Positions 1,255 through 15,583 of a DNA stretch of 35,146 nt are shown here, piece after piece. The DNA lies in the IMG/VR virus record IMGVR_UViG_2909309443_000004. One strand, written 5' to 3'. The notes below the pieces were generated by a model. It had not been told where the DNA came from and did no database searches. It saw nothing but the letters and a program-made list of their open reading frames with translations. The position numbers were made by a program, and so were the translations under genes. This stretch comes from a virus (lineage: Duplodnaviria > Heunggongvirae > Uroviricota > Caudoviricetes). How positions within the stretch are numbered: the stretch's first letter is position 1; each line of letters starts with the position of its first letter.

Positions 1255-1449
1255 TTAATAGTTCTGCTGATTTTCTTCCATCTCGGCTTCTGCTGCCAGT
1301 GATTCAATTTTATCTGCGAATATTGCTGACAGTGTTGCAAATTCAGCATCAGTGACAGCGGGAATTGGAACAAACCTGATCCCGCTGTGTGCAAGCATGT
1401 TTGCAGTTTCAAGGCATTTCCTTAAATCTGCTGGTGATGCCCGGTTCAT
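1255..1449 (-). CDS. small early protein (64 aa), DUF1382-like by eye
   Basis: ATG at 1449-1447 overlaps the TGA of the upstream methyltransferase gene (ATGA coupling). MNRASPADLRKCLETANMLAHSGIRFVPIP resembles small lambdoid b-region proteins. The longer 104-aa track ORF is an out-of-frame extension into the MTase gene. Confidence 0.55.
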   Translation of the reverse strand: MNRASPADLRKCLETANMLAHSGIRFVPIPAVTDAEFATLSAIFADKIESLAAEAEMEENQQNY

Positions 1450-2096
1450 GCTGCACGCTCCCGCCCCTGGTTGTCTGTTGGTGACAGCGGAGCATTGCTG
1501 AATGCATTTGTTAATCTGGCAATATCCAATGCGTATCCAGGGTGTAGTTGCACTGCCGGGTCTTCGCACTGATTACCCCAAACATCGAAGCCATGAGACG
1601 ACTGGCGGGCGAACAGTTCAATGCGAGAAACATCGCCTAACAATTGCACAAGTTTTTCACGAACGACATCTGGTTTTCTTGAATGCTCAAGCCGCGGTGC
1701 GGTAAATGACTGAACGATCCCTGCATTAATGCGCGGAGGTAGTTTTCCCTTTACTGCAAACAGGCAATCTTCACTATTGGCGCGAGTCATGTGTCCCATA
1801 CCCATAACCAGTTTATCTGGTTGTCGACTACCACATTTTATCCATGTGAAGCCCTTCATGGTCATCAGACGGAATCCCCAGGCTTCAACAACTTTTAGCG
1901 CTTCGAGTGGTTGTGTTGGCACCCACCACATGGCCAACAGACAGTTTTCATCGGCCAAATCCCACACAGGAAGGCGGCAGATATCCATCACACTCATAAC
2001 CGGATATTTAAAACCGGCACCGCGATTACCATCTGCGGCTTTGTCCCGGTATACCCAGGGTGGATCTGCATAGATTAGTGTGTATTTCTTAGTCAT
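1446..2096 (-). CDS. MT-A70 family DNA N6-adenine methyltransferase (orphan; no partner nuclease seen)
   Basis: 216-aa ORF with the DPPW catalytic motif near the N-terminus (LIYADPPWVY) and MT-A70-type core blocks (CLLAMWWVP, GFRLMTMKGFTW, EHSRKP). Confidence 0.88.
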   Translation of the reverse strand: MTKKYTLIYADPPWVYRDKAADGNRGAGFKYPVMSVMDICRLPVWDLADENCLLAMWWVPTQPLEALKVVEAWGFRLMTMKGFTWIKCGSRQPDKLVMGMGHMTRANSEDCLFAVKGKLPPRINAGIVQSFTAPRLEHSRKPDVVREKLVQLLGDVSRIELFARQSSHGFDVWGNQCEDPAVQLHPGYALDIARLTNAFSNAPLSPTDNQGRERAA

Positions 2097-2388
2097 AAAC
2101 CACCCCGCAACATCCTATACCGCTATAGTCGCCACGGCGAAGGCCGTTACCTTTTGTGATACATTGGTCCCTGCGAACCGCGATCCTTGCACGCTCAACA
2201 TCACCAGAAGCAACATCCATACACTGAAGCCAAAGGTGAGCGGCAATGCGGAACTGTCCTTTTTTCTCTCTTTCAATTGCGCGTTTTTCGATCTCTATCG
2301 CCGCAGGAGTAACGGCGACAATCTTTGACGGACTGCGCATTGAAACCTTGTTCATGTGATATTTTTCAAGTCGGCTTAACTTTCTCAC
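2089..2388 (-). CDS. PerC/Pch-like small transcriptional regulator
   Basis: 99-aa ORF, GTG start at 2388 or ATG at 2355. The core GQFRIAAHLWLQCMDVASGDVERARIAVRRDQC fits the PerC-family pattern as I remember it (G-x-W/F-R-x-A-A..W-L..D-x-E-R..R-R-x-x-C). 8-nt overlap with the MTase start. Confidence 0.5.
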   Translation of the reverse strand: MRKLSRLEKYHMNKVSMRSPSKIVAVTPAAIEIEKRAIEREKKGQFRIAAHLWLQCMDVASGDVERARIAVRRDQCITKGNGLRRGDYSGIGCCGVVYD

Positions 2389-2497
2389 TTAATCCAACCC
2401 TCTCTGAAAATTAATGCCAGCAGATAAAGCCATGCTGAAACAGAGGCCAGGAATAAGTACCATCCTGACCATTTGCTCCAGTGCCTTAGCAGCACAC

Positions 2498-2746
2498 TCA
2501 TGCAGCGTTGCTCACAGGACGATATACACGTTGCTGAACAGGAGGCTTTTTACCCTGGAACTCTGCCGGGCTTGCTGCCTGACGTTCATCAAGCCAACGC
2601 TCAACTTCATCACGGTTCCATGCGCAGCGTTTGTCAGTGATATACCAGCGTTTAGGAAATTCCCCTGCGCGCTCCATGCGGTCGATAGTGCTCCATGACA
2701 GTGGCACCACCGCCAGGAGTTCCTTCTTACCTAATGCACCTTTCAT
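2498..2746 (-). CDS. AlpA-family excisionase / regulator
   Basis: 82 aa with the AlpA-type winged-helix pattern LSWSTIDRMERAGEFPKRWYITDKRCAWNRDEVERWLDER. Position is between the recombination genes and int. Confidence 0.8.
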   Translation of the reverse strand: MKGALGKKELLAVVPLSWSTIDRMERAGEFPKRWYITDKRCAWNRDEVERWLDERQAASPAEFQGKKPPVQQRVYRPVSNAA

Positions 2747-2795
2747 AAATACCTCTCTTGGTTGCAGTGCGGCGCGCGTGGCGCCGCGGTGGTGG

Positions 2796-3737
2796 TTACA
2801 TAGATGTTTCGTTTAATTCTTCTCGACGAACGCTGTAAACGTCGGTGGCTTTTGCCAGCAGTTCGTCATCATCTGAAAGTTTTTGTGCAATGTATTTGTA
2901 AGCTTTATCCAGTTCGAAGACAGTGCTGTAATTCATCGCTGCGCTGGTAAAGGCCATCAGCATTTCTTCTGGATCACGGCTATCCGCTTTACGCGTTTGC
3001 TCATCAGGCTTTTTCACTTGTTTAGCGTTGATCAGACTGTTCATTCCCGCAGCAGTGGTCGTTTGCGGAGTAATGTCTCGCTCAACGCGCGGTGCCGTTT
3101 CCTGTAATTCGTCTGGTGTGTAGACGCCCATGATTACGTCAGGACAGTGCAGGCGAGACCAGCGTTTTGTCGCAAGGTATGCGAGTTGTTGTTTCGGATC
3201 ACTGGCCCAAAGTGTGGAGTTTCTTACCTGTGCTTGAGACAGCATTAACTCAAGCACTCGAGGTTGATCCTCGCCCTTCATGGTTGCCCATACGCGAACA
3301 CCGCAGCCTTCTTCGTCTTTTAGAGTCCAGCCTGGTGCGATATATGGATTGCCGTTTTTGGATGTTTTCTCAACAAACTTACCGATCACGCGTTCCCACG
3401 GCCCGAACCACTCGTAGTTGATGCGATCTTTTGTTGGCGACATCGTTGAGATAACTGCGTTTACTAATTGGGCTTCATAACCTAGCGTGCCGTTCACAAC
3501 ATGGGTTTTCTGAGCCACGGCAAACGGGTTCATTCCCCACTGCGCAGCCTGCATTGCCACGGCCATGCAATCAGCTGGTTTCCCGGCGAGGTGCGCCGGT
3601 ACCGTTACGCGGCTTTGCGCCATTACCTCGGCGAATTTCATCAGTTGGTTCAAGCCGTCTGGGCTGAAAATAGTTGCAGCAGTTCCAGCGATTGCTGTGT
3701 CTACTGGTGCGTTGATGTTTGCGATGTCGTTGCTCAT
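2796..3737 (-). CDS. recT: RecT-family single-strand annealing protein
   Basis: 313 aa from ATG 3737, which forms an ATGA overlap with the stop of the upstream exonuclease gene. RecT-like blocks AQWGMNPFAVAQKTHVVNGTLGYEAQLVNAVI and LAYLATKRWSRLHCPDVIMGVY. Confidence 0.82.
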   Translation of the reverse strand: MSNDIANINAPVDTAIAGTAATIFSPDGLNQLMKFAEVMAQSRVTVPAHLAGKPADCMAVAMQAAQWGMNPFAVAQKTHVVNGTLGYEAQLVNAVISTMSPTKDRINYEWFGPWERVIGKFVEKTSKNGNPYIAPGWTLKDEEGCGVRVWATMKGEDQPRVLELMLSQAQVRNSTLWASDPKQQLAYLATKRWSRLHCPDVIMGVYTPDELQETAPRVERDITPQTTTAAGMNSLINAKQVKKPDEQTRKADSRDPEEMLMAFTSAAMNYSTVFELDKAYKYIAQKLSDDDELLAKATDVYSVRREELNETSM

Positions 3738-4555
3738 ATGTACATATCCTGTTTGCGTGCCCACTCAGGGCGTTTAATGATTTCCACACCGCCCCATTCA
3801 TCATTGATGCGGCATTCGTGATAGGTATTCAGATCCCGGCGGAACAGAGCGTGCCCGGCATCGACATCCTGCGCATCCAGCTCGAACACGCGTACCGGAT
3901 ACCGACCACAATCAATGCTTTCGCTCACGGCAAGAAAGAAAAAACCATGCGGCTGACCAGTAACCCTCATTGCGCCTTCGCGGTACATTGCGTCCTGCAC
4001 GTGGTAGCGGAATTCCTCGATGTGGCGTGCAAAACGGTCCATATCTGCAACCTTTTTCACGTCGACGATTACGTTGTGCTCGTTCAGCCATTTGTCTGGA
4101 CGAATTCGGCACAACTCACCCGTCTCTTCATCGTTCCAGTACATTGATGCTTCGCAGTAACCAGGTGCTTCCAACATCCAGCGTGCCGCCGGATGAGCCA
4201 TTGCGCTATCACGCATCAGCTCCAGTTTTCGCCACTGCTCGACATCAAGTACCGTAATACCCATATCCGCCACATCACGAAGAAATGCTTCTTCGTCAGC
4301 TTTACCTTGTTTTGTCCGACGATCTAATTTCGGTGAAACGATGAAGCGTTTGTCGAATTCTCCAGGTTCCAGAAGCAGACAGTGCAATGCGGTTCCCATA
4401 TCCAGTGCAGACTTTTTCTCTTCGTCTTCTGGTGCTGCCTGAACCCATTTAAGAAGCGCCGGATTCTTGGCAACCATGTCCAGTTGCGACTTACTCACGC
4501 CGTCACCGGCGTGGTAGTCTTCGTTGCTGATGTCGAAATAAATTCCCGGTTTCAT
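3734..4555 (-). CDS. RecE-like PD-(D/E)XK exonuclease (DUF3799/YqaJ-type)
   Basis: 273 aa. N-terminal ISNEDYH..SKSQL, nuclease core with IRPD..IVDVKK, translationally coupled to recT. Confidence 0.78.
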   Translation of the reverse strand: MKPGIYFDISNEDYHAGDGVSKSQLDMVAKNPALLKWVQAAPEDEEKKSALDMGTALHCLLLEPGEFDKRFIVSPKLDRRTKQGKADEEAFLRDVADMGITVLDVEQWRKLELMRDSAMAHPAARWMLEAPGYCEASMYWNDEETGELCRIRPDKWLNEHNVIVDVKKVADMDRFARHIEEFRYHVQDAMYREGAMRVTGQPHGFFFLAVSESIDCGRYPVRVFELDAQDVDAGHALFRRDLNTYHECRINDEWGGVEIIKRPEWARKQDMYI

Positions 4556-4851
4556 GCCGCGTCCCTCTGCCCATCAAGCTGATCAGCCAGATCCCAGCGC
4601 GCGATAATTGCCATTGCCTCGCGCCGGTAGGCATCCATCAGTTCTTCGAACTCAGGGCTGTCTTTAGCTGCTTCCAGCACTTCCTGGCGAACTCCTTTGC
4701 CTGTTACAACGTCGAAAGTTGAGGCCAGTTGATGAAGCCGGATGGTCTCAATCAGTTCAACTTGTCGGTCATATAGCTGTTCTGACAGGCGGTAGTCCTT
4801 GTCGAATGCCAGCATGATTTTTTGAAGATTTTTCTGCTGATTAACGTTCAT
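4552..4851 (-). CDS. hypothetical early protein (99 aa)
   Basis: ATG at 4851 (MNVNQQKNLQ). Its stop overlaps the exonuclease start as ATGA. No family recognised. Confidence 0.6.
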   Translation of the reverse strand: MNVNQQKNLQKIMLAFDKDYRLSEQLYDRQVELIETIRLHQLASTFDVVTGKGVRQEVLEAAKDSPEFEELMDAYRREAMAIIARWDLADQLDGQRDAA

Positions 4852-4853
4852 TA

Positions 4854-5006
4854 TCAGCCCTCCCATATCTCGTTATCGTTGGCCACATCGCGAGCTTCTT
4901 TGCTGACGAAAGCCCACTTAATGCCTTCCTGTAAGGTGCGGAACTTCCAGCTCATGAATCCGCATGCAGTAACGCAGTACCAACCGTTGATGATTTTCCA
5001 CTGCAT
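4854..5006 (-). CDS. small hypothetical protein (50 aa), first gene of the leftward operon
   Basis: Hand-translated, below the ORF-track cutoff: MQWKIINGWYCVTACGFMSWKFRTLQEGIKWAFVSKEARDVANDNEIWEG. GAGG lies 8-11 nt upstream of the ATG at 5006. The stop is 2 nt before the next start. Confidence 0.4.
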   Translation of the reverse strand: MQWKIINGWYCVTACGFMSWKFRTLQEGIKWAFVSKEARDVANDNEIWEG

Positions 5007-5025
5007 AACTTGTTACCTCGGTCTG

Positions 5026-5102
5026 TTACCGTTGAGGTAATAATTATGCTTATTTGGTTTGGTGTCAATAGATATGAGTTAAAAAAATTACCCGTAAGGT
5101 AA
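5026..5102 (-). promoter_or_regulatory. leftward early promoter with two operator copies (OL-like)
   Basis: TTACCGTTGAGGTAA at 5026-5040 and TTACCCGTAAGGTAA at 5088-5102 flank a minus-strand -35 TTGACA (complement of 5063-5068). An AT-rich -10 region lies around 5041-5047. Confidence 0.65.
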
Positions 5103-5112
5103 TCTATCTGGC

Positions 5113-5139
5113 AATAAAAAAGCCGCCATGAGGCGGCTT
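5113..5139 (-). terminator. rho-independent terminator of the repressor gene
   Basis: Minus strand reads AAGCCGCC-TCAT-GGCGGCTT followed by TTTTATT, 20 nt after the repressor stop. Confidence 0.75.
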
Positions 5140-5159
5140 ACTTGCTGAAAACTATAGTT

Positions 5160-5744
5160 TTATTGTTTGCTTTTTTCGTTCTGGTTGATGACAAATTCAA
5201 TGTAACTTTCGATCTTTGCCTTCTCTGTTTCAGGTAACAATGCGTAGCGCGAGCGGTCATAGTTGATAGTCGCGGGGTCGTGCGGGTGAATCAGTAATTC
5301 ATATCCGTGACGCCCAAATGCGGATGCAACATTCTCCAGGGTGGAAATGGAAACGCTGACCTCATTGTTTAACAGGCGGCTGATTGTTACCTGGGCGACG
5401 CCGGATGCGCGGTGAAGTTTTCCCTGCGTTGAAAGGTCGCGGCTTTCGCTCATCCAGCGTTCCAGGTTGTGAGCCGCCAGTTGACCAATGTCGCTTGGTC
5501 CGACAGGCTGAAAACCTTCCTGAGAAAGCGAGCGATCGATATCAAGCCAGTTACGGGGTTTATTGGCGGCAGCTTCAATTTTTCGCGCAACCTGGTCGCC
5601 GATAACCTTCTTGCCAAGAGCCCAGCGGTTTACCAGATTTGCCTGAGTTCCAAGTTTTTCAGCCATCCGCGTCTGAACACCATTGAATTCACGGTCGATC
5701 AAGTCGTTGAGATTTTGCCTGCGGACGTCCTGGATACTTTTCAT
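5160..5744 (-). CDS. prophage repressor with two HTH domains and no S24 peptidase domain
   Basis: 194 aa. N-terminal XRE-type HTH (TRMAEKLGTQANLVNRWALGKK) and a second HTH (LHRASGVAQVTISRLLNNEVSVS). No Ala-Gly / Ser..Lys autocleavage module. Divergent from a Cro-like gene across a triple operator. Confidence 0.82.
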   Translation of the reverse strand: MKSIQDVRRQNLNDLIDREFNGVQTRMAEKLGTQANLVNRWALGKKVIGDQVARKIEAAANKPRNWLDIDRSLSQEGFQPVGPSDIGQLAAHNLERWMSESRDLSTQGKLHRASGVAQVTISRLLNNEVSVSISTLENVASAFGRHGYELLIHPHDPATINYDRSRYALLPETEKAKIESYIEFVINQNEKSKQ

Positions 5745-5799
5745 TTTCTGGAAAATCGCCTCATATCTGAATCAGAAGATGATTCAATTTAAAGCAATA

Positions 5800-5866
5800 T
5801 TACCCAACAGGTAAATGCACCTCATGGGTAACTATCCTTGATTTTTGTTACCTTATAGGTGAATAT
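5800..5866. promoter_or_regulatory. OR-like triple operator plus rightward promoter
   Basis: Operators: TTACCCAACAGGTAA (5800-5814), GCACCTCATGGGTAA (5817-5831, imperfect), TTACCTTATAGGTGA (5848-5862, one mismatch). Rightward promoter: TTGATT (5838-5843), 17-nt spacer, GAATAT (5861-5866), overlapping the third operator. Confidence 0.7.
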
Positions 5867-5898
5867 TTATTATCTGAAATAAATATCAGGCAATAGCT

Positions 5899-6129
5899 AT
5901 GAGCGATAACGGACATTTCGATTTCAAAAAGCACTGGCTTGCACTTACTCCGGATGAGCGTGAAGCCTTCGCACAGGAAGCCGGAACGACGAGTCACTAT
6001 ATCCAGACTCACTTAACAGGTAAGCGCAAAATGCCAGGTAAGGTATTGATGGATGGGCTTTTTAAAGCCTGTAAATCAAGACAATGGCTGCGCTCAAAAG
6101 CAGAACTGGCATACTTCTTCTACTCATGA
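5899..6129 (+). CDS. Cro-like / YdaS-type small HTH regulator
   Basis: 76 aa, divergent from the repressor. HTH-like segment EAFAQEAGTTSHYIQTHLTGKRK. Confidence 0.65.
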   Translation: MSDNGHFDFKKHWLALTPDEREAFAQEAGTTSHYIQTHLTGKRKMPGKVLMDGLFKACKSRQWLRSKAELAYFFYS

Positions 6130-6150
6130 TATCCAGCCACAACCCTCTGT

Positions 6151-6174
6151 AGACCGCCATCCGGCGGTCTTTTC
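6151..6174 (+). terminator. rho-independent terminator after the cro-like gene
   Basis: AGACCGCC-ATCC-GGCGGTCT followed by TTTC, 22 nt after the stop codon. Confidence 0.7.
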
Positions 6175-6184
6175 ATATCTATTC

Positions 6185-6199
6185 GTACCTCAAGGGTAA
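6185..6199. promoter_or_regulatory. operator-like site (one mismatch)
   Basis: GTACCTCAAGGGTAA lies directly after the terminator and ahead of the replication genes. No convincing -35/-10 found around it. Confidence 0.4.
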
Positions 6200-6279
6200 T
6201 AAAAAACCAAATATGGTTGATCTTTTTTTTGTGTCAGCACAAAATAACCGTAATCCCAATACTAATAACAGGGCTTACC

Positions 6280-6480
6280 ATGGAAATCATTACACGTATT
6301 GATGCCGCAAAGCGCGGACTTAAACGCTACTACACCGGAAAAACATGTAAGCACGGACATGACAGTGAACGCTGGGTTTACAACGGACACTGTGTTGAGT
6401 GCACCATGGAATCAAACCGTCGTATCAGGGCAGAGATTAAGCAGATCATGATTAATTCCTCCCCACAACATTCAAGCTGA
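6280..6480 (+). CDS. small Cys/His zinc-ribbon-type phage protein (66 aa)
   Basis: ATG at 6280 (MEIITRIDAAKRGLKRYYTGKTCKHGHDSERWVYNGHCVEC). The RYYTGK-x-C-x-HGH...C-x-x-C pattern recurs in phage early regions. The upstream part of the track ORF (6217) is hydrophobic read-through of a T-tract. Confidence 0.6.
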   Translation: MEIITRIDAAKRGLKRYYTGKTCKHGHDSERWVYNGHCVECTMESNRRIRAEIKQIMINSSPQHSS

Positions 6481-6495
6481 TAGCGGAGATTAATC

Positions 6496-7311
6496 ATGAG
6501 CAGACATGCAACAGATTGGGCCTGGGAGACAGATCCAGGTAGCTCGTCATTAAAGCTCATACTGCTCTCGATGGCTGACAGAGCCGATGAATATAACCTC
6601 TGCTACCCCAGCATAGAACGCCTCGTTAAAGACACTTGCCTGAATAAAAAAACCGTGCAGGCCGGACTTATATCGCTCATGAAAATGGGGCTTATTTCAG
6701 ATACCGGGGAGAGAAAGGGAGCGACAAAAAGAGTGCGGGTTTTCTCTCTTAATATAACCAAAAACGGGAACATTAAAGGCAACCGAGAGGGGGGCAATGA
6801 ACCCGAAAACGGTAATGTTACCGAAAACGGGAATATACCCAAAAACGGGATGTTGAATGATCCCAAAAACGGGATGTTGAATGATCCCAAAAACGGGATC
6901 CAGAACCAGTCATATAACCAGTCATTTAACCAAGAGAGGGAGAGCAGGACAAAAAACGGGGATTCTGTGCATCATGACCCCGGCGCAAACAACGCCGTGA
7001 TGAATAACTTTGTTCCTCCTGGTGGGCCAGGGCAATTAGGCAAATTTGTCATGCATGAACAATGGCAGCCATCAGATGACTTTCTTCGGAAAAGCTCATT
7101 GCAGGGGATCTACCTGGACAGTCTGCCAACGGCACAGGAACTTGCAGAGTTCAGAATTTACTGGATGGCTGAGGGTAAGGCATACCATCAGGCACAGTGG
7201 GAGCAGAAGCTGGCAAGGCGGCTGCAGATTAGCAGACAGAAGCAATCAACATTACCTGATAACAACGTTCCGCACTGGAACAGCCCTGAAGCATGGGAGG
7301 ATTTCTTGTGA
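6496..7311 (+). CDS. replication initiator (N-terminal HTH, internal iteron-encoded repeats, DnaT-like C-terminus)
   Basis: 271 aa. N-terminus LKLILLSMADRADEYNLCYPSIERLVKDTCLNKKTVQAGLISL. Central repeats ENGNVTENGNIPKNGMLNDPKNGMLNDPKNG. C-terminus WQPSDDFL..FRIYWMAEGKAYHQAQWEQKLARRLQ. Confidence 0.82.
   Translation: MSRHATDWAWETDPGSSSLKLILLSMADRADEYNLCYPSIERLVKDTCLNKKTVQAGLISLMKMGLISDTGERKGATKRVRVFSLNITKNGNIKGNREGGNEPENGNVTENGNIPKNGMLNDPKNGMLNDPKNGIQNQSYNQSFNQERESRTKNGDSVHHDPGANNAVMNNFVPPGGPGQLGKFVMHEQWQPSDDFLRKSSLQGIYLDSLPTAQELAEFRIYWMAEGKAYHQAQWEQKLARRLQISRQKQSTLPDNNVPHWNSPEAWEDFL
6757..6963 (+). repeat. origin-type iterons inside the initiator gene
   Basis: Seven copies of CC(A/G)AAAACGG(G/T)A at 6757, 6802, 6820, 6838, 6862, 6886 and 6948. 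These include a perfect 24-bp tandem duplication, CCCAAAAACGGGATGTTGAATGAT (6838-6861 and 6862-6885). Confidence 0.7.
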
Positions 7312-8093
7312 ACAACGTTTTTACCGCGATACAAAACCGTGACGGAGAAGCCCTTTCTCGCATGTCAGGTTATGAGCATCAGTACACCAACAATGACAAC
7401 GTAGTGAACATGTCAGCAGAGAGGCTTGTTGATGCCCTTTTCAAACAGTTGAAACAACTGTTTCCGGCGGCAGTGGTAACCAACCTGAAGACGCCAGAGC
7501 AGGAAGTTGCTGCAAAACAGCAGTGGATTGCTGCGTTTGCCGAAGGGGGGATCCGAACCCGTGAACAGGTTTCTGCTGGTATGCGCCACGCCCGCGCCAG
7601 TGAATCTCCGTTCTGGCCGTCGCCAGGGCAATTTATCAAGTGGTGTAAAGACAGCAAGATGGTTCTTGGCGTCACCATTGACGATGTGATGGCGGAGTTT
7701 CACCGGTACAGCAAGGAAAAAAGTTTATATCCTGGTGGTCCCGAAAGATTCCCGTGGCGGCATCCGGTTATGTACTGGGTCGTATGTGATACACGCCGTG
7801 CAATGTATCAGCGCCAGCTTAGCGAGATTGAGGTTGAGAAACACGCGCGCAGGCTGCTCGATGATTGGGCGAAAAAGGTGGCTTCCGGACAGCAGATACC
7901 CGATCCGGTGATCAGCATACAGGCAAAGCCAGAGCCCATGAGTACGCCTCCGGACACAGGGAGAGACGTTTACCATCCACCAGGGCGAAGTTTCGGGTGC
8001 ATGCCTAACGCCGCCACCCTTGGGGGAATAACACCGGCGCAGTGGCTGATGGAGGAATACAGGCGGGGAAAGGCGGCAGGATTTATCAAGTAA
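7308..8093 (+). CDS. lambda-P-like replicative helicase loader
   Basis: GTG at 7308 forms a GTGA overlap with the initiator stop, with GGAGG 6 nt upstream; alternative ATG at 7293. Collinear by eye with lambda P (QQWIAAFAEGGIRTREQVSAGMRHAR..FWPSPGQFIKWCK..SLYPGGPERFPWRHPVMYW). Confidence 0.85.
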   Translation: MNNVFTAIQNRDGEALSRMSGYEHQYTNNDNVVNMSAERLVDALFKQLKQLFPAAVVTNLKTPEQEVAAKQQWIAAFAEGGIRTREQVSAGMRHARASESPFWPSPGQFIKWCKDSKMVLGVTIDDVMAEFHRYSKEKSLYPGGPERFPWRHPVMYWVVCDTRRAMYQRQLSEIEVEKHARRLLDDWAKKVASGQQIPDPVISIQAKPEPMSTPPDTGRDVYHPPGRSFGCMPNAATLGGITPAQWLMEEYRRGKAAGFIK

Positions 8094-8098
8094 TACCA

Positions 8099-8118
8099 GC
8101 GCGATAGCGCATTTTTTT
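8099..8118 (+). terminator. weak hairpin plus T7 tract after the P-like gene
   Basis: GCGC-GATA-GCGC then ATTTTTTT. The short stem keeps confidence low. Confidence 0.35.
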
Positions 8119-8130
8119 ACGTCTATATGA

Positions 8131-8207
8131 TTACCTGGAAGGTAATAAAATGTTCTAATCTCTATTGATTTCATGTCTTATGTGGTTTTTAATTACCTAA
8201 GGGGTAA
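8131..8207 (+). promoter_or_regulatory. promoter flanked by two perfect operators
   Basis: TTACCTGGAAGGTAA (8131-8145) and TTACCTAAGGGGTAA (8193-8207). TTGATT (8165-8170), 17-nt spacer, TTTAAT (8188-8193). The second operator covers the predicted start site and the RBS of the next ORF. Confidence 0.65.
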
Positions 8208-8210
8208 ATC

Positions 8211-8333
8211 ATGAGAAAACAGATACAGGCTCTTGGTCGACTCAAAACAGGCCAGATGAACAAAACAGAATCTGCGTATTGCCAGCACCTTGAGCTGCGT
8301 AAACGTGCAGGGGAAATCGCCTGGTATCGATTC
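8211..8333 (+). pseudogene. 5' fragment of a small phage nuclease-like gene (DUF1064/resolvase-like by eye)
   Basis: MRKQIQALGRLKTGQMNKTESAYCQHLELRKRAGEIAWYRF looks like the N-terminus of a conserved family. After codon F (8331-8333) the frame reads unrelated sequence and stops at 8399. Confidence 0.45.
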
Positions 8334-8523
8334 ACCATCAGTGCCTGCAACACCAGAAGTTCAGGCAGCACCACAGGAGCAGGATGCCGCCGTTGTTGAT
8401 GCCCGCGACGAAGAAACTCGTCGCCGTCGCGCTGCTGCTGGTCGTAGTTCTACGCTGCTTACCGGTTCTCAGGGCGACACATCAACCGCTAATACCAGCG
8501 GTAAAACGCTGCTTGGTCAGTAA
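8334..8523 (+). pseudogene. 3' fragment of a T7 gp7.3-like small virion protein gene
   Basis: A different frame reads ..PEVQAAPQEQDAAVVDARDEETRRRRAAAGRSSTLLTGSQGDTSTANTSGKTLLGQ* and ends 14 nt before the portal start. No credible start codon or RBS of its own. Confidence 0.45.
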
Positions 8524-8537
8524 CCGGAGTCATTGAA

Positions 8538-10217
8538 ATGGCGGAAACAACTAAAGAGCGATTGAACAAACAGTTCGCACAACTTGAAAGCGAGCGTCAG
8601 TCGTTCGAGCCGCACTGGCGCGAGTTGAGTGATTACATCAACCCGCGTGGTTCCCGCTTTCTGACTTCTGAGGTCAACCGTAACGATCGACGCAATACAC
8701 GCATTATTGATTCGACCGGGACTATGGCGGCGCGCACTCTCGCCAGCGGCATGATGTCAGGCATCACAAGCCCCGCGCGTCCGTGGTTTCGCCTGGCTAC
8801 GCCAGATCCTGAAATGATGGATTATGGCCCTGTTAAGTTGTGGCTTGAGGCGGTGCAGAACCGCATGAACGATATGTTCAATAAGTCGAATCTCTATCAG
8901 TCGCTGCCGCAGTTATACGGAAGCCTCGGCACATACAGCACTGGCGCAATGGCGGTGCTGGAGGATGACGAGGACATCATTCGTACAATGCCATTCCCGA
9001 TAGGAAGTTACTACCTGGCTAACTCACCTCGTGGCAGTGTGGACACCTGTTTTCGCAAGTTCTCTATGACTGTTCGTCAGCTTGTTCAGGAGTTCGGGCT
9101 AAATAACGTCAGCGAATCCGTAAAAAGCATGTGGGAAAGCGGCACCTACGAGAAGTGGATTGACGTGATGCATTCGGTTTACCCGAACATTGACCGCGAT
9201 ACATCGAAGCTGGATAGCAAGAACAAGCCATTCAAATCGGTTTATTACGAGGTTGGTGGCGATAACGACAAGTTGTTGCGTGAGTCCGGATTTGATGAGT
9301 TTCCAATTATGGCTCCGCGCTGGGAAGTTAACGGCGAAGATGTTTATGGATCATCATGCCCGGGTATGCTGGCGCTTGGAGCTGTTAAGGCATTGCAGCT
9401 TCTCCAGAAGCGCAAGTCGCAGTTGATTGATAAAGCCACCAATCCGCCGATGGTTGCTCCGACTTCCCTCAAGAATCAGCGTGCCTCCCTTCTTCCTGGC
9501 GACATCACGTATATCGATCAGATTACTGGTCAGGATGGTTTCAGGCCTGCTTATCTGGTTAACCCCAGTACAGCAGATTTGGTGGCAGACATTCAGGACA
9601 CTCGTCAAATCATTAACAGCGCCTACTTTGTCGATCTGTTCATGATGTTGCAGAACATCAATACCCGCTCGATGCCTGTTGAAGCGGTGATCGAAATGAA
9701 AGAAGAAAAACTTCTGATGTTGGGGCCGGTTCTGGAGCGTCTGAACGACGAATGTCTTAACCCTCTCATTGACCGCGCTTTCTCGATGATGGTGCGTAAA
9801 AACATGCTGCCGCCACCGCCTGACGCGATGGAAGGTATGCCCCTGAAGGTCGAATACATTTCCGTCATGGCTCAGGCGCAGAAGTCTATCGGCCTGTCCA
9901 GTCTGGCGTCCACGGTTAACTTCATTGGTCAACTTGCGCAAGCGAAACCAGAAGCTCTCGACAAACTCAACGTTGATCAGGCGATCGATGCATTCGCTGA
10001 TATGTCCGGAGTGTCTCCAACCGTCATTGTTCCGCAGGAACAGGTTGAGCAGGCTCGCCAGCAACGGGCACAGCAACAACAGCAGCAACAAATGATGGCG
10101 ATGGGGATGGCGGCGGCACAGGGTGCCAAGACGCTAAGCGAAGCTAAAACTTCGGATCCGAGTGTTTTGTCAGCTATGGCGAATGCAGTTAGTGGTCAGG
10201 GTGGGCAATCACAATGA
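8538..10217 (+). CDS. portal protein (T7-type head-to-tail connector family)
   Basis: 559 aa. N-terminus RLNKQFAQLESERQSFEPHWRELSDYINPRGSRF..RNTRIIDSTGTMAARTLASGMMSGITSPARPWFRL is typical of podovirus portals. Gln-rich C-terminus. Confidence 0.9.
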   Translation: MAETTKERLNKQFAQLESERQSFEPHWRELSDYINPRGSRFLTSEVNRNDRRNTRIIDSTGTMAARTLASGMMSGITSPARPWFRLATPDPEMMDYGPVKLWLEAVQNRMNDMFNKSNLYQSLPQLYGSLGTYSTGAMAVLEDDEDIIRTMPFPIGSYYLANSPRGSVDTCFRKFSMTVRQLVQEFGLNNVSESVKSMWESGTYEKWIDVMHSVYPNIDRDTSKLDSKNKPFKSVYYEVGGDNDKLLRESGFDEFPIMAPRWEVNGEDVYGSSCPGMLALGAVKALQLLQKRKSQLIDKATNPPMVAPTSLKNQRASLLPGDITYIDQITGQDGFRPAYLVNPSTADLVADIQDTRQIINSAYFVDLFMMLQNINTRSMPVEAVIEMKEEKLLMLGPVLERLNDECLNPLIDRAFSMMVRKNMLPPPPDAMEGMPLKVEYISVMAQAQKSIGLSSLASTVNFIGQLAQAKPEALDKLNVDQAIDAFADMSGVSPTVIVPQEQVEQARQQRAQQQQQQQMMAMGMAAAQGAKTLSEAKTSDPSVLSAMANAVSGQGGQSQ

Positions 10218-10510
10218 CAGATTACGAAGATGATCAACTGAAAGAAGAAAACGCCCGTAAGCAACGTGACATGGCACAGCGTGAAATTGATGACATTCGC
10301 TTTGTCATGAGCAGTGAACAGGGGCGTCGCGTTGTCTGGTCGGTGCTGGAGAAAGGCCGTGTGTTTTCCGCTATCTCACCGATGGACGCTATGGCAATGG
10401 CATTTAATGAGGGGCAACGCAATCTGGCGCTGGAACTGTTTCAGCGCGTTATGGCGCATTGCCCTGAACAGTATTTGAAGATGGCCAAAGAGGCCAGTGA
10501 ACAGGAGTGA
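10214..10510 (+). CDS. small conserved head-module protein (Bbp19-like by eye)
   Basis: 98 aa. ATGA overlap with the portal stop, positioned between portal and scaffold. Confidence 0.55.
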   Translation: MTDYEDDQLKEENARKQRDMAQREIDDIRFVMSSEQGRRVVWSVLEKGRVFSAISPMDAMAMAFNEGQRNLALELFQRVMAHCPEQYLKMAKEASEQE

Positions 10511-10512
10511 TC

Positions 10513-11208
10513 ATGAATTTATTTGAGCGTTTGCTGTATCGCCGTCTTTGCAATGAGCAACCAGTCGATGGTGGAGCAGCTCCGGCTGCGTCAGAACCGT
10601 CAGCGCCTGCAGGTGATAACCCTGCTCCAGTTGGTGATCCATCACAATCGGAAGGTGATAAGCCACAACCTGTTGCTGATGGCGATAAACCTGCTGATGA
10701 CAAAAAGCCTGAAAGCGATAAGCAGGGTGAAAAAAAGGACGGCGATAAACCGGATGGTGCGCCGGAGAAGTACGAGTTTCAGGCTGCCGAAGGCGTAGAG
10801 CTGGATACAGAAGCGTTAAAGGAATTCGAGCCGGTGGCGCGAGAACTAAACCTGACCAACGAGCAAGCGCAAAAGCTGGTTGATGCTTATCCGAAGATTC
10901 TGGCAGGTGTTCAGCAGCGCCAGGCAGAAGCCTGGCAGAAAACAACCGAGCAGTGGGCTGCGGATGTAAAAGCTGACAAAGAAATCGGTGGCGACAAGTT
11001 GATTTCTAACCTTAGCTCCGCACAGCGTGCGCTTGACCAGTTCGGGACACCTGAACTCAAAGAATATCTGAACACCACCGGGCTGGGTAATCACCCTGAT
11101 CTGGTCAAAACGTTCGTGAAAATCGGAAAGGCGATGTCTGAAGATGGCATGGTCACCGGTGGTAATGAAGGCCAGCGTAGTGCGGCCGAAGTGCTCTATG
11201 GCAAATAA
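10513..11208 (+). CDS. scaffolding protein
   Basis: ATG at 10513 with AGGAG 5 nt upstream. Acidic/Pro-rich GDKP-repeat N-terminus then a helical C-terminus. Sits directly before the capsid gene. Confidence 0.72.
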   Translation: MNLFERLLYRRLCNEQPVDGGAAPAASEPSAPAGDNPAPVGDPSQSEGDKPQPVADGDKPADDKKPESDKQGEKKDGDKPDGAPEKYEFQAAEGVELDTEALKEFEPVARELNLTNEQAQKLVDAYPKILAGVQQRQAEAWQKTTEQWAADVKADKEIGGDKLISNLSSAQRALDQFGTPELKEYLNTTGLGNHPDLVKTFVKIGKAMSEDGMVTGGNEGQRSAAEVLYGK

Positions 11209-11222
11209 GAGAGGAGATAACA

Positions 11223-12000
11223 ATGGCTGTTAAAGGCTTAACTGCGCTAACGCTGGCTGACTGGGGTAAGCGCGTCGATCCAAATGGGAAAGTCGATAAG
11301 ATTATCGAGCTTCTCAATCAAACTAACCCAATTCTTCAGGATATGCCTTTTGTTGAAGGAAACCTTCCTACCGGACACCGAACCACCATTCGTTCTGGTT
11401 TACCTTCTGCTACCTGGCGTTTGCTGAACTATGGCGTACAGCCAAGCAAATCAACCACAGTGCAGGTCACCGATTCCATTGGCATGCTGGAAACCTATGC
11501 TGAAGTCGATAAGTCTCTGGCTGATCTGAACGGTAATACTGCCGAATTCCGTCTGTCTGAAGACCGAGCATTTATTGAAGCGATGAATCAGGCGATGGCG
11601 CAGACACTGTTTTACGGTGATTCCAGCGTTAACCCTCAGCAGTTTATGGGACTGTCCTCCCGCTATTCCAGCCTGTCTGCGGGTAATGCTCAGAACATCA
11701 TTGATGCTGGTGGCACGGGTACAGATAACACTTCAATCTGGTTAGTGGTGTGGGGCGAAAACACCGTGCATGGCATCTTCCCGAAAGGACAGAAGGCTGG
11801 CATTCAGATGGAAGATAAAGGCCAGGTGACACTGGAAGATGCTAATGGCGGCAAGTACGAAGGTTATCGTACCCATTATAAGTGGGACAACGGGCTGACA
11901 TTACGTGACTGGCGCTATGTAGTTCGTATCGCAAACATCGATGTCAGCAATCTTTCAGAACCTTCCTCTGCCGCAAATATTGCGAAGTTGATGGTTAAAG
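11223..12000 (+). pseudogene. major capsid protein gene, 5' part (interrupted by IS)
   Basis: Capsid-like ORF reads to ..ANIAKLMVK and then runs into the IS inverted repeat. Joining 12000 to 14540 restores one 328-aa frame. Confidence 0.85.
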
Positions 12001-12085
12001 GTAAGCGTAAACTGACCGCCGTATGTAGCCATCAGACGAGAATTGGTAACTTAGACGCCCATCTGATATAGACGGACATCTAAGT

Positions 12086-12511
12086 ATGGAATTACAGGAC
12101 TGGCGAAAAGAACCTCGTAAAAACTATTCGAATGAATTCAAACTTCGTATGGTGGAACTGGCATCACAACCTGGAGCTTGTGTTGCACAGATTGCACGTG
12201 AAAATGGCGTCAATGATAATGTTATTTTCAAATGGCTCAGGCTCTGGCAGAACGAAGGGCGTGTTTCGCGGCGTCTTCCGGTAACGACCTCTTCTGACAC
12301 TGGCGTTGAATTATTACCTGTAGAAATAACGCCGGATGAGCAGAAAGAACCTGTGGCGGCCATTGCGCCGTCTTTATCCACTTCCACTCAGACCAGAGTC
12401 AGTGCCAGTTCCTGCAAGGTGGAATTCCGTCACGGTAACATGACGCTGGAAAATCCATCGCCAGAGCTGCTCACAGTGTTGATCCGTGAACTGACCGGGA
12501 GGGGAAGATGA
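12086..12511 (+). CDS. tnpA: IS66-family accessory protein TnpA (HTH)
   Basis: 141 aa, RKNYSNEFKLRMVELASQPGACVAQIARENGVNDNVIFKWLR. ATGA overlap with tnpB. Confidence 0.88.
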   Translation: MELQDWRKEPRKNYSNEFKLRMVELASQPGACVAQIARENGVNDNVIFKWLRLWQNEGRVSRRLPVTTSSDTGVELLPVEITPDEQKEPVAAIAPSLSTSTQTRVSASSCKVEFRHGNMTLENPSPELLTVLIRELTGRGR

Positions 12512-12858
12512 TCTCACTCCCATCAGGTACCCGTATCTGGCTCGTTGCCGGCGTTACCGATATGCGTAAATCCTTCAACGGACTGGGAGAACAGGTACAA
12601 CATGTGCTGAATGATAATCCCTTCTCCGGTCACCTGTTTATCTTCCGTGGCCGACGGGGTGACACCGTCAAAATTCTTTGGGCTGATGCTGATGGTCTGT
12701 GCCTGTTCACCAAACGCCTGGAGGAAGGCCAGTTTATCTGGCCTGCGGTACGTGACGGCAAGGTATCCATTACCCGCTCGCAACTGGCAATGCTCCTCGA
12801 TAAGCTGGACTGGCGTCAGCCAAAAACATCCAGCCGTAACTCACTGACAATGTTGTAA
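12508..12858 (+). CDS. tnpB: IS66-family Orf2 protein TnpB
   Basis: 116 aa, RIWLVAGVTDMRKSFNGLGEQVQHVL..LFIFRGRRGDTVKILWADADGLCLFTKRLE, typical of IS66 Orf2. Confidence 0.9.
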   Translation: MISLPSGTRIWLVAGVTDMRKSFNGLGEQVQHVLNDNPFSGHLFIFRGRRGDTVKILWADADGLCLFTKRLEEGQFIWPAVRDGKVSITRSQLAMLLDKLDWRQPKTSSRNSLTML

Positions 12859-12888
12859 AAAACTCCTGACCGCATTATAAAAACGGTC

Positions 12889-14502
12889 ATGAGTCAGAAA
12901 TACCTCATTCGCATCGCAGAGCTGGAAAGGTTGCTCTCTGAGCAGGCTGAAGCCCTCCGTCAGAAAGACCAGCAACTGAGTCTGGTTGAAGAGACGGAAG
13001 CCTTCCTGCGCTCTGCACTGACACGTGCCGAAGAAAAGATCGAAGAAGATGAACGGGAAATAGAACATCTGCGGGCTCAGATAGAAAAACTGCGCCGGAT
13101 GCTGTTCGGTACCCGTTCTGAAAAACTGCGTCGTGAAGTTGAACTGGCTGAGGCTCTGCTGAAACAACGTGAACAGGACAGCGATCGTTACAGTGGGCGG
13201 GAAGACGATCCTCAGGTTCCCCGCCAGTTGCGACAGTCGCGCCATCGTCGTCCGTTACCGGCACACCTTCCCCGTGAAATACACCGCCTGGAGCCAGAAG
13301 AAAGCTGTTGCCCGGAGTGTGGCGGTGAGCTGGATTATCTGGGGGAAGTCAGCGCTGAACAGCTGGAACTGGTGAGCAGTGCCCTGAAAGTGATCCGCAC
13401 AGAACGGGTAAAAAAAGCCTGTACAAAATGTGACTGTATTGTTGAAGCACCGGCGCCGTCCCGCCCGATAGAGCGTGGTATCGCGGGCCCCGGATTACTT
13501 GCCCGCGTGTTAACGGGAAAATACTGCGAACATCTGCCACTGTATCGTCAGAGTGAAATCTTTGCCCGCCAGGGTGTCGAACTGAGCCGGGCCTTACTCT
13601 CCAACTGGGTTGACGCGTGCTGCCAGTTAATGACACCGGTGAATGATGCCCTGTACCGTTATGTAATGAACACCCGCAAGATTCACACTGATGACACACC
13701 GGTAAAGGTACTGGCACCGGGTCAGAAAAAGGCGAAAACAGGGCGTATCTGGACGTATGTCCGGGATGATCGCAATGTGGGTTCGTCATCTCCTCCAGCG
13801 GTCTGGTTCGCGTACTCGCCGAACCGGCAGGGGAAACACCCGGAGCAACACCTCCGCCCCTTCCGGGGTATCCTGCAGGCGGATGCGTTCACAGGTTACG
13901 ACAGGTTGTTCAGTGCAGAACGTGAAGGTGGTGCACTGACAGAAGTTGCGTGCTGGGCCCATGCCCGGCGAAAAATCCACGATGTATACATCAGCAGCAA
14001 AAGTGCGACGGCAGAAGAAGCACTGAAGCGAATCAGTGAACTGTACGCCATCGAGGATGAAATACGGGGATTACCGGAGTCAGAGCGTCTTGCCGTCAGG
14101 CAGCAGCGAAGCAAAGTGTTACTGACGTCGCTGCATGAATGGATGGTGGAGAAGAATGGTACGCTGTCGAAAAAATCCAGACTGGGCGAAGCGTTCAGCT
14201 ATGTACTGAATCAGTGGGATGCCCTCTGTTATTACAGTGATGACGGTCTGGCGGAGGCGGATAATAATGCTGCGGAAAGAGCGCTTCGTGCAGTCTGTCT
14301 CGGAAAGAAAAACTTTATGTTCTTTGGCAGCGATCACGGCGGCGAGCGTGGAGCACTGTTGTACGGGCTGATCGGCACCTGCCGTCTGAACGGTATCGAT
14401 CCGGAAGCGTATCTGCGCCATATCCTGAGCGTACTGCCGGAATGGCCTTCCAACCGAGTTGATGAACTCCTGCCATGGAACGTAGTACTCACCAATAAAT
14501 AA
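12889..14502 (+). CDS. tnpC: IS66-family DDE transposase TnpC
   Basis: 537 aa with an N-terminal coiled coil/leucine zipper, a CPECGG..C-x-x-C zinc motif, and a core with HTDDTPVKVL and DNNAAERALR. Confidence 0.92.
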   Translation: MSQKYLIRIAELERLLSEQAEALRQKDQQLSLVEETEAFLRSALTRAEEKIEEDEREIEHLRAQIEKLRRMLFGTRSEKLRREVELAEALLKQREQDSDRYSGREDDPQVPRQLRQSRHRRPLPAHLPREIHRLEPEESCCPECGGELDYLGEVSAEQLELVSSALKVIRTERVKKACTKCDCIVEAPAPSRPIERGIAGPGLLARVLTGKYCEHLPLYRQSEIFARQGVELSRALLSNWVDACCQLMTPVNDALYRYVMNTRKIHTDDTPVKVLAPGQKKAKTGRIWTYVRDDRNVGSSSPPAVWFAYSPNRQGKHPEQHLRPFRGILQADAFTGYDRLFSAEREGGALTEVACWAHARRKIHDVYISSKSATAEEALKRISELYAIEDEIRGLPESERLAVRQQRSKVLLTSLHEWMVEKNGTLSKKSRLGEAFSYVLNQWDALCYYSDDGLAEADNNAAERALRAVCLGKKNFMFFGSDHGGERGALLYGLIGTCRLNGIDPEAYLRHILSVLPEWPSNRVDELLPWNVVLTNK

Positions 14503-14539
14503 GCGTCAATACGGTGCTCCGTTGACGCTTACGTTAAAG

Positions 14540-14748
14540 CACTGCATCGCATTCCAAACCGTGGCATGGGTCGCCCGGTGTTCTACATGAACCGCACTGT
14601 AGGCCAGGCTCTTGATCTGCAATCTCTGGAGAAAACATCTCTGGCTATCAGCGTAAAAGAGACTGAAGGCGAGTGGTGGACTTCATTCCGTGGTGTACCA
14701 ATCCGTGAAACTGATGCGCTTCTGGAAACAGAAGCCCGCGTGGTGTAA
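14540..14748 (+). pseudogene. major capsid protein gene, 3' part
   Basis: Continues the 11223 frame after removal of the IS plus one repeat copy (..MVK|ALHRIPNRGMGRPVFYMNRTV..EARVV*). The track ORF 14566-14748 is its ATG-delimited tail. Confidence 0.82.
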
Positions 14749-14799: not shown

Positions 14800-15237
14800 A
14801 TGATCACCGACAAACTGTTGATGTTCTCCGAAGCACAGGCGGTAACTGATACCGCGGCTTCTACTGACGTAATCGATCTCGGTCCAATTGACGGAAACCG
14901 TCGCGATATCGGTGTGGGTTACCCGCTTGAGTTTTGGGTGCTGGTTAACGAAGCCGCCACGGCAAGTGGTGAGGCAACTGTAAACATCCAGTTGCAGACG
15001 AGTGAGAATAACAGCTCATGGTCCACTATTTATGATAGTGGCGCACTGGCAAAGGCTACCCTGACAGCAGGTAAACGAGTTGTTTCTGCAAAGGTTCCTT
15101 CCGGTGTTCAGCGATATCTGCGTGTTAACTACTCCGTCGCGACTGGCCCACTAACGGCCTGCAAATTCACTGCTGGTATCAATCTTGATGTTGATGCCAA
15201 TACGCCGTATCCGATCCGCTCAAAAGTAACTGGTTAA
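14800..15237 (+). CDS. putative capsid cement/decoration protein (Bbp16-like by eye)
   Basis: 145 aa. N-terminus LLMFSEAQAVTDTAASTDVIDLG..DIGVGYPLEFWVLV matches the pattern I associate with podovirus jelly-roll cement proteins. GGAG RBS. Confidence 0.45.
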   Translation: MITDKLLMFSEAQAVTDTAASTDVIDLGPIDGNRRDIGVGYPLEFWVLVNEAATASGEATVNIQLQTSENNSSWSTIYDSGALAKATLTAGKRVVSAKVPSGVQRYLRVNYSVATGPLTACKFTAGINLDVDANTPYPIRSKVTG

Positions 15238-15247
15238 GGTGATATCG

Positions 15248-15583
15248 ATGTCAGGTGAGAAACCAAGATACCGCGTTCTGCGCCTCTCTCATATCCATAA
15301 CACTCTGTGGCCGGAGGGGGCAGAAATCGAATACGAAGGTGAGCCTGGTAGCGCACTGGAACCTGTTAACGATGCAGCCAGACAGGCAAAAGCAAAAGTT
15401 GCAGGAAAGGTGTCAATGGCAGCAACCAGCACCAAAATCATCAACGATGTGTCAGATGATGGTGAACTGGATAAGCTCCGTGAAGAGTACGAATTGCTCT
15501 TTAACGAGAAGCCACACCATAACGCCAAAGCAGAAACGCTCCGCGAGAAGATCGCAAATAAGCGTAAAGAACTGGGCGTGTAA
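15248..15583 (+). CDS. hypothetical head-module protein (111 aa)
   Basis: ATG at 15248 preceded by AAGGTGA. Predicted helical, Lys/Glu-rich C-terminus. Followed by a strong terminator. Confidence 0.6.
   Translation: MSGEKPRYRVLRLSHIHNTLWPEGAEIEYEGEPGSALEPVNDAARQAKAKVAGKVSMAATSTKIINDVSDDGELDKLREEYELLFNEKPHHNAKAETLREKIANKRKELGV

Follow-up and report, generated by a model that had tools for sequence, protein, structure and literature searches.

Evidence for a terminase-module deletion in a defective Uetakevirus prophage at the 3′ end of guaA in Escherichia coli

Introduction

The DNA stretch of 35,146 nucleotides (nt) in the IMG/VR virus record IMGVR_UViG_2909309443_000004 (Caudoviricetes), called here in its full length the window, contains in front of its portal gene a short segment, positions 8211-8537, in which two reading frames overlap. 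One is an open reading frame (ORF) at 8211-8399, the other is open from 8290 and ends at 8523. Is this a regular gene arrangement of a phage, or is it the trace of an event by which packaging genes were lost? An original prediction, made from the sequence alone, had proposed a deletion scar with a breakpoint near 8330-8340. The analysis presented here makes us highly confident that the window represents a defective Uetakevirus (phiV10/epsilon15-like) prophage, residing at the 3′ end of guaA, and that it carries the scar of a deletion of the terminase module. The deletion itself stands uncontradicted, and the weak points of this reading sit in the functional inferences that can be drawn from it.

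Two Gene Remnants Are Joined at a 2-nt Microhomology

Comparison of the whole window with phiV10 (NC_007804.2) by blastn shows that window positions 1-8333 correspond to phiV10 26927-35272 and that window positions 8332-12000 correspond to phiV10 3372-7040. In megablast searches of positions 7300-9300 against sequenced phages, the query is cut at 8333/8332. Bases up to 8333 resemble the replication-gene/DUF1064 region of phiV10-type phages (97-99% identity), bases from 8332 on resemble the region just 5′ of the portal genes in such phages (98-99%), and no record of a sequenced phage spans both junction halves contiguously. Megablast and a three-way alignment place the predicted breakpoint exactly at 8332/8333. 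At this point the left parent reads ...GGTATCG(G/A)TTC, then GAGGG, the right parent reads ...GGGTAGCTC, then ACCATC, and the window reads ...GGTATCGATTC, then ACCATC, with TC (8332-8333) as the sole bases shared at the join. Intact relatives are arranged differently from 8211-8523: a distance of 7.2-7.6 kb, within which terS and terL are located, separates the two halves in phiV10 and in the E. coli strain 4/4 prophage. The features around the junction are as follows.

Positions 8211-8333, plus strand: 5′ remnant of a DUF1064/PHROG 190 nuclease-like gene, 41 of 114 codons left.
Positions 8332-8333, no strand: deletion junction, 2-nt microhomology TC common to both parental sequences.
Positions 8332-8523, plus strand: 3′ remnant of a PhiV10p06/epsilon15 gp3-like gene (PHROG 831), codons 6-68 and stop codon.
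Positions 8538-10217, plus strand: portal gene, intact, 559 amino acids (aa) (Pfam Head-tail_con, E = 3.9e-188; PHROG 332).

Joins of this blunt, microhomology-level kind are typical of illegitimate recombination, and the site is best explained by a single deletion of about 7.2-7.6 kb that arose in this way and was sealed at the 2-nt microhomology TC. By this event, the DUF1064 nuclease-like gene was joined at its codon 41, out of frame, to the small pre-portal gene at codon 6 of the latter.

The ORF at 8211-8399 (62 aa) had been described as nuclease-like at its start and as losing sense after 8333, and both tblastn and PHROG comparisons agree with this description. Its start reads MRKQIQALGRLKTGQMNKTESAYCQHLELRKRAGEIAWYRF and is followed by low-sense sequence. 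Only residues 1-41, encoded by 8211-8333, align with the 114-aa PhiV10p45 (95% identity in tblastn), and the match to PHROG 190 is limited to residues 1-42. The last 21 codons are an out-of-frame read-through into foreign sequence, as far as a stop codon with its last base at 8399. Pfam does not match the 62-aa ORF, which in the Pfam/PHROG comparison did not align over its full length to DUF1064 (PF06356), PHROG 190, or any other family. Intact PhiV10p45 reaches 30.5 bits with PF06356 (cut-off 24.7), matches PHROG 190 (“Holliday junction resolvase”) over residues 1-113, and also matches PHROG 945 (“endonuclease”). Its PD...(E)xK-type motif, consisting of PDF at residues 55-57 and EVK at residues 70-72, probably has a catalytic role in view of the nuclease annotation, and it is gone from the remnant, which ends at residue 41. 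RefSeq labels this left fragment a pseudogene (“DUF1064 ... incomplete; missing C-terminus”).

On the right side of the junction, residues 6-68 of the 68-residue PhiV10p06 are kept at 100% identity, in a different frame that starts at 8332 (tblastn), and the stop codon at 8521-8523 lies 14 nt 5′ of the portal ATG at 8538. This is in line with the 60-odd residues that had been seen in another frame from about 8334, ending 14 nt before the portal gene. However, the remnant is not the end piece of a large protein, since 63 of only 68 residues are present; the loss concerns codons 1-5, and thus the start codon, as well as the ribosome-binding site and the native upstream region, and the remnant is not a complete ORF. 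The only in-frame start candidates upstream are TTG at 8290, for which no ribosome-binding site is apparent by eye, and ATC at 8326. RefSeq presents the fragment as a 65-codon hypothetical protein, WP_047608207.1 (window 8326-8523), starting on the ATC codon that straddles the junction, which looks like the annotation rescue of a gene stripped of its start codon.

The p06 family, PHROG 831, is of unknown function, and for p06 itself Pfam and NCBIfam gave no match and a PDB sequence search yielded chance-level hits only (E of at least 0.58). NCBIfam scans of the DUF1064 protein, PhiV10p55, TerS, TerL, and the Gp49-family protein had zero matches as well. The label “gp7.3-like” that the right remnant had received finds no support at the sequence level. 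T7 gp7.3 (PHROG 1320) and T7 gp6.7 (PHROG 1391, DUF5476) were both compared with p06, and they belong to other PHROG families and gave BLASTP E values of 20 and 2.0, respectively. The resemblance of p06 to these proteins may be an analogy of position only, as a small gene adjoining the portal gene in a T7-like virion module.

The Missing Interval Contains the Terminase Genes

In phiV10, the segment that is missing from the window comprises 35273-39104 plus 1-3371, 7,203 bp in total, and its counterpart in an intact E. coli prophage of the same backbone, that of strain 4/4 (NZ_CP023826.1, locus L006), comprises 7,612 bp. The flanks of the junction are 96 and 100% identical between the window and the strain 4/4 prophage, and the gene order is the same on both sides. 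The missing interval comprises the following features.

Rest of the DUF1064 gene, including the presumed catalytic C-terminus (PhiV10p45).
Ten accessory genes (p46-p54, eae/Ea22-like and similar; phiV10 annotation).
PhiV10p55, “transcriptional regulator” (PHROG 536).
terS (Pfam Terminase_2; PHROG 51).
terL (PHROG 2, E = 3e-52).
A gene of the Gp49/Sf6 gp66 family on the opposite strand (Pfam Phage_gp49_66).
p04 (phiV10 annotation).
tRNA-Arg(UCU), phiV10 2853-2929, minus strand (ARAGORN).
A region of about 430 bp 5′ of p06 (from the sequence).

The strain 4/4 prophage keeps the full DUF1064 gene, accessory genes, NinX, a PhiV10p55-like gene, terS, terL, the Gp49-family gene, tRNA-Arg(UCU), and the operator in front of p06. 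The gene content of phiV10 and of the strain 4/4 prophage thus bears out that the deletion took the remaining early genes, a putative regulator, and both terminase genes, while the suggestion that the regulator, PhiV10p55, is a late activator goes beyond what these annotations show.

When phiV10 TerS, TerL, and PhiV10p55 were compared with the window by tblastn, the best E value was 0.85, and the element in the window does not possess a complete packaging module (terS plus terL). Since phiV10 TerL is itself invisible to Pfam and owes its identity to PHROG 2, a lack of Pfam terminase matches among the window ORFs is uninformative alone, and tblastn was relied on. The window ORFs of more than 400 aa encode the integrase, the portal protein, an IS66-family transposase, a tail-protein fusion, three large proteins of the internal/virion class (PHROGs 992, 1145, and 684), and the tailspike. 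The statement that every such ORF can be assigned and that none is a terminase is therefore confirmed by the Pfam and PHROG assignments together with tblastn. In the parts of the window that are unlike phiV10 (about 25.5-32 kb), only ORFs of less than 250 aa and the tailspike gene are found. All sequenced phages of the group have terS and terL between the DUF1064 gene and the pre-portal genes. As the role of terminase is known for the family, an element that lacks it would be unable to package its own DNA, and from its sequence the element appears to be a defective derivative rather than a functional member of Uetakevirus.

In the intact relatives, tRNA-Arg(UCU) is located between the Gp49-family gene and the structural operon (phiV10 2853-2929, minus strand; L006 10483-10559, minus strand). 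The phiV10 RefSeq record does not annotate this tRNA, which overlaps the end of the coding sequence PhiV10p04 (2672-2923), and ARAGORN found no tRNA in the window.

Integration Site and Preserved Genes

phiV10, whose relatives include epsilon15, vB_EcoP_ZX5, and TL-2011b, is 97-98% identical to the window at the nucleotide level and colinear with it over window positions 1-25528, apart from the lesions. It shares with the window the attP/attR core, the guaA site, and palindromes at the same intergenic positions. The window differs from phiV10 in that it lacks phiV10 35273-39104 plus 1-3371 and also 10926-12221, and in that its capsid gene is interrupted by an IS66-family element. In the host, guaA is followed by the integrase gene and the rest of the prophage, and then by yfgI and yfgH.

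Positions 1-1251, plus strand: integrase, full length, 416 aa (Pfam Arm-DNA-bind_3, Phage_int_M, Phage_integrase; phiV10 from 26927).
Positions 33969-33985, plus strand: attR core ATTGAGTGGGAATGATT, exact match, right end of the prophage.

Because position 1 of the window is the start codon of the integrase gene, attL must be located at the 3′ end of guaA, outside the window on its upstream side. The core ATTGAGTGGGAATGATT and integration at guaA have been published for phiV10, epsilon15, and ZX5 (PMC9782041). Integrase, repressor, replication, and lysis genes appear to be intact in the window.

Distribution of the Junction and Order of Decay

Complete E. coli genomes were surveyed with a junction query of 400 bp centred on 8332/8333. 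In 15 of them, this 400-bp region is 100% identical, and each of these records has one place that matches either half. About 520 other genomes have the junction halves at separate places, i.e., the intact arrangement. The 15 carriers include FORC_031 (Korea), human isolates with E-number names, and two serotype-labelled strains, both of which are O6:H16. The numbers of genomes with a terL gene of the phiV10 type and with the portal gene are 523 and 529, respectively, mostly as full-length matches; by themselves they provide no count of terminase-less prophages, for the two sets need not overlap. Within IMG/VR, the exact 30-mer of the junction is present in one contig only, the name of which suggests an isolate genome and which says nothing on packaging.

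The structural genes of the window carry further lesions, at the insertion of an insertion sequence (IS) and at a second deletion.

Positions 11223-12000, plus strand: major capsid gene, 5′ part, phiV10 capsid residues 1-264 (tblastn); pseudogene in RefSeq.
Positions 12001-14532, plus strand: IS66-family element (ISEc23-like; tnpA, tnpB, and a 537-aa transposase) inserted in the capsid gene (Pfam DDE_Tnp_IS66; target duplication GTTAAAG).
Positions 14533-14748, plus strand: major capsid gene, 3′ part, capsid residues 258-328 (tblastn).
Positions 16562-18733, plus strand: in-frame fusion of the tail protein PhiV10p15 (N-terminal ~620 aa) with the C-terminus of PhiV10p17 (PHROG 376 and PHROG 418 in one ORF).

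The second deletion, of about 1.3 kb (phiV10 10926-12221), has removed the end of p15, the whole of p16, and the start of p17 (blastn). Its junction at 18412-18424 lies within a 13-nt near-repeat, TACCGG(A/C)GCTGAT, each copy of which encodes TGAD, and the p17-like protein is an internal virion protein of the T7 gp14 family. This tail junction is present in exactly the 15 genomes that have the terminase junction. The junction between IS and capsid gene, in turn, was encountered in 1 of 5,426 complete E. coli genomes, strain E8 (Bangladesh), and the window differs from the RefSeq record of E8 by 3 mismatches in 25.2 kb, which makes E8, or an isolate or assembly nearly identical to it, the source of the window. 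FORC_031 equals the window minus the IS. Strain 2011EL-1370-2 has no IS at this place, and its copy has additionally lost 1.9 kb (window 15074-16960) and acquired an IS100 within the tailspike gene. When the distance between the two shared junctions was computed from their coordinates in the 15 genomes, it amounted to 7,545 bp in five genomes, 5,656 bp in eight, 6,397 bp in E1535, and 10,084 bp in E8.

In the sister copies that were fetched, there are 2-3 single-nucleotide polymorphisms (SNPs) per aligned block of ~12-20 kb and otherwise private lesions only, which indicates that the clone is young. As both deletions occur in the same 15 genomes and the other lesions are limited to individual strains, the two deletions are taken to be ancestral and the other lesions recent and private. 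The terminase deletion thus most likely goes back to a single event in the founder of an enterotoxigenic E. coli clone, in which the tail deletion is equally widespread and for which the serotype label, where given, is O6:H16. Strain-specific damage followed, i.e., the insertion of ISEc23 in the capsid gene of E8 and further deletions and IS100 in sister strains.

A Parallel Deletion in Strain CEA601S

A defective prophage of the unrelated strain CEA601S (NZ_CP166713.1, locus L004) has suffered an independent deletion of nearly the same module, also with a 2-nt overlap at the join. Its left end lies in the DUF1064 gene, 21 nt further 3′ than that of the window, and its right end lies inside the tRNA-Arg gene, ~450 bp 5′ of the right end in the window. 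In the coordinates of the intact strain 4/4 prophage the breakpoints are 3411/10551, and the junctions in the CEA601S prophage itself are found at 3213-3214 and 6397-6400. CEA601S, unlike the window, still has the small gene in front of the portal gene, together with the operator region 5′ of it. The second deletion of CEA601S also differs, joining a protease gene to a tail gene. The two cases have the look of a recurrent event, but the search for parallel deletions detects only deletions that leave both 200-bp flanks at most 700 bp apart, and the resemblance of CEA601S to the window is therefore mostly an ascertainment effect.

The cryptic prophages of E. coli K-12 (DLP12, Rac, Qin, e14, and CP4-57) have been immobilised by deletions and IS elements, and they keep regulatory genes, integrase genes, and some lysis genes. 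They are lambdoid or P4-like, and far older and more eroded. In contrast to them, the element in the window is of the podovirus type and early in its decay, and a comparison of sister genomes still reveals in which order its lesions arose.

Operator-Like Palindromes and the Promoter Now in Front of the Structural Genes

The 15-bp palindrome TTACC-N5-GGTAA occurs in 11 copies in the window, whereas 0.62 copies are expected, and none of 100 shuffled sequences reached 11. The sites are conserved in phiV10 and strain 4/4. These copies and the control elements close to them are located as follows.

Positions 5026-5040 and 5088-5102: palindrome copies in the early-left control region.
Positions 5160-5744, minus strand: putative prophage repressor, 194 aa, of the length of PhiV10p40, with an HTH_3 domain (Pfam HTH_3).
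Positions 5800-5814, 5848-5862, and 6185-6199: palindrome copies around the repressor and cro-like genes.
Positions 8099-8118, plus strand: weak terminator-like hairpin, GCGC-GATA-GCGC followed by seven T, after the replication P gene (annotated in phiV10 as putative terminator 35038-35057).
Positions 8131-8145, no strand: upstream operator-like palindrome TTACCTGGAAGGTAA, conserved in phiV10 and strain 4/4.
Positions 8165-8193, plus strand: promoter-like site with TTGATT, a 17-nt spacer, and TTTAAT (from the sequence).
Positions 8193-8207, no strand: downstream operator-like palindrome TTACCTAAGGGGTAA, directly adjacent to the -10 hexamer and overlapping with the ribosome-binding site in front of the 8211 ORF.
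Positions 26949-26963, 27989-28003, and 28082-28096: palindrome copies in the anti-repressor block.
Positions 29202-29216: palindrome copy 5′ of the tailspike gene.

Between 8131 and 8207, the layout is operator, 18 nt, TTGATT, 17 nt, TTTAAT, operator, and the early-left region (minus strand, ~5026-5102) has the layout operator, 18 nt, TTGACA, 17 nt, AATTAT, operator, with TTGACA being a consensus hexamer. The spacing of 62 bp within the pair 8131/8193 recurs in the pair 5026/5088 and in phiV10 at 31953/32015 and 35070/35132. By eye, TTGATT-17-TTTAAT agrees with the consensus at 9 of 12 positions. The internal parallel with the early-left layout provides good evidence that 8165-8193 may well be a real promoter bracketed by repressor-binding sites.

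The hairpin at 8099-8118 is not called by the strict terminator scan because its stem has only 4 pairs. Between 8211 and 8538 the strict scan detected no terminator-like site, which makes read-through into the structural genes plausible, and the portal gene is the first intact gene 3′ of the promoter-like site. It is thus plausible that the site at 8165-8193 now reads into the portal and other structural genes; the two-operator promoter of the DUF1064 gene would be the nearest promoter 5′ of them, and transcription would occur after inactivation of the repressor. In the intact relatives, one palindrome copy is present ~90-105 nt 5′ of the p06 start codon and two copies are present at terS. As these relatives already have a palindrome 5′ of the structural operon, the control logic of this operon probably was swapped rather than created anew.

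The 194-aa HTH_3 protein is the likely binder of the TTACC-N5-GGTAA sites, four copies of which (starting at 5026, 5088, 5800, and 5848) flank its gene. Over-expression of the repressor of phage ZX5, which has the same sequence as the phiV10 repressor, blocks transcription of lytic/lysis genes (PMC9782041). The palindromes occupy most of the intergenic control regions in the prophage, and this distribution suggests that a single repressor might act directly on many operons, namely early-left, early-right, the DUF1064 operon, the anti-repressor block, and the tailspike gene. A similar multi-copy operator is reportedly described in the epsilon15 genome paper by Kropinski from 2007.

Alternative Explanations and Significance

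Two points limit the functional inferences. In the host chromosome, only one place matches the junction and portal queries, which is the sole evidence bearing on whether a compatible terminase is encoded elsewhere in the host. In addition, a strict sigma-70 scan of positions 7900-8700 called no promoter, TTTAAT having a T instead of the conserved A at the second position of the -10 hexamer. The original prediction that an operator-controlled promoter at 8165-8193 reads into the structural genes is accordingly plausible in terms of layout, palindromes, and the lack of a terminator, but the site escapes the strict scan, and repressor control of the structural genes is likely to have existed before the deletion.

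If the deletion were selected rather than neutral, the element might be a domesticated, non-transmissible resident module, retained for its benefit to the host, that provides superinfection immunity, exclusion, induced altruistic lysis, or DNA-free particles, expressed from the fused two-operator promoter. Such a view would fit with the full length of the integrase, repressor, replication, anti-repressor, and lysis genes, with the presence of the element in 15 genomes from several countries, with the independent deletion of a near-identical interval in CEA601S, and with an operator-flanked promoter-like site that is still located 5′ of the structural genes. If this were true, CEA601S would mark a recurrent and favoured route of domestication for Uetakevirus prophages. 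However, the structural genes decay in different ways in the sister strains (IS in the capsid gene, deletions of 1.1-1.9 kb, IS100 in the tailspike gene), which argues against selection on particle production. Also, with so few SNPs per block the clone is very young and its persistence does not need selection, and the CEA601S parallel is largely due to ascertainment. Selection is very improbable in our judgement.

That the window might represent a natural modular variant, with the packaging genes elsewhere in the element or provided by another module, was considered since phiV10-like genomes are mosaic in their accessory and tailspike regions. No support for it was found. Both flanking genes are cut mid-codon and joined out of frame, the rest of the window is explained by phiV10 synteny, an insertion sequence, and small accessory genes, there is no terminase match in the window, and sequenced phages of the group all keep terS and terL between these genes; such a variant would be exceedingly unlikely. 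A helper-dependent satellite was rejected as well, with capsid and tail genes damaged and the terS region deleted, around which pac sites usually lie. An assembly or sequencing artefact, e.g., a collapsed or chimeric contig, has no point in its support and can practically be dismissed, as 15 complete assemblies, produced in different laboratories and with different technologies, agree in every base of the 400-bp junction, which is also present in one isolate-derived IMG/VR contig.

The deletion of the terminase module, in our preferred reading, belongs to ordinary prophage decay, which for the left remnant is already reflected in its pseudogene status in RefSeq, and it leaves the current understanding of prophage biology unchanged. 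Only two points are not routine, the order of decay that can be read across sister genomes and the multi-copy operator architecture. The sister genomes constitute a small and clean example of such an order, with shared deletions first and private IS insertions and deletions later. In practical terms, the prophage next to guaA should be classed as defective and left out of counts of inducible, transducing, or lysogenising phages, and 8211-8523 should be annotated as two pseudogene fragments instead of a “hypothetical protein”.

Regions That Differ From phiV10

The block 25528-31990 of the window is mostly unlike phiV10. The counterpart of phiV10 19.3-24.7 kb is largely different in the window, with regard to the C-terminus of the tailspike and the anti-repressor block, and has no match to the O-acetyltransferase gene. 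The minus strand encodes a Bro-N/Ant-type anti-repressor at 27030-27758, which overlaps with a small ORF upstream of it, called DUF1778 in RefSeq, and a 242-aa protein encoded at 28117-28845 has a zinc-finger C-terminus that is Lar-like/endonuclease VII-like. In the tailspike (866 aa), the N-terminal ~170 aa are conserved and the C-terminus is different, ending in a Peptidase_S74 chaperone domain. Outside this block, at 2796-4555 (minus strand), a RecT-like gene and a PD-(D/E)XK nuclease-like gene are separate ORFs in the window (313 and 273 aa in RefSeq), whereas a single 586-aa RecE-RecT fusion is annotated in the phiV10 record.

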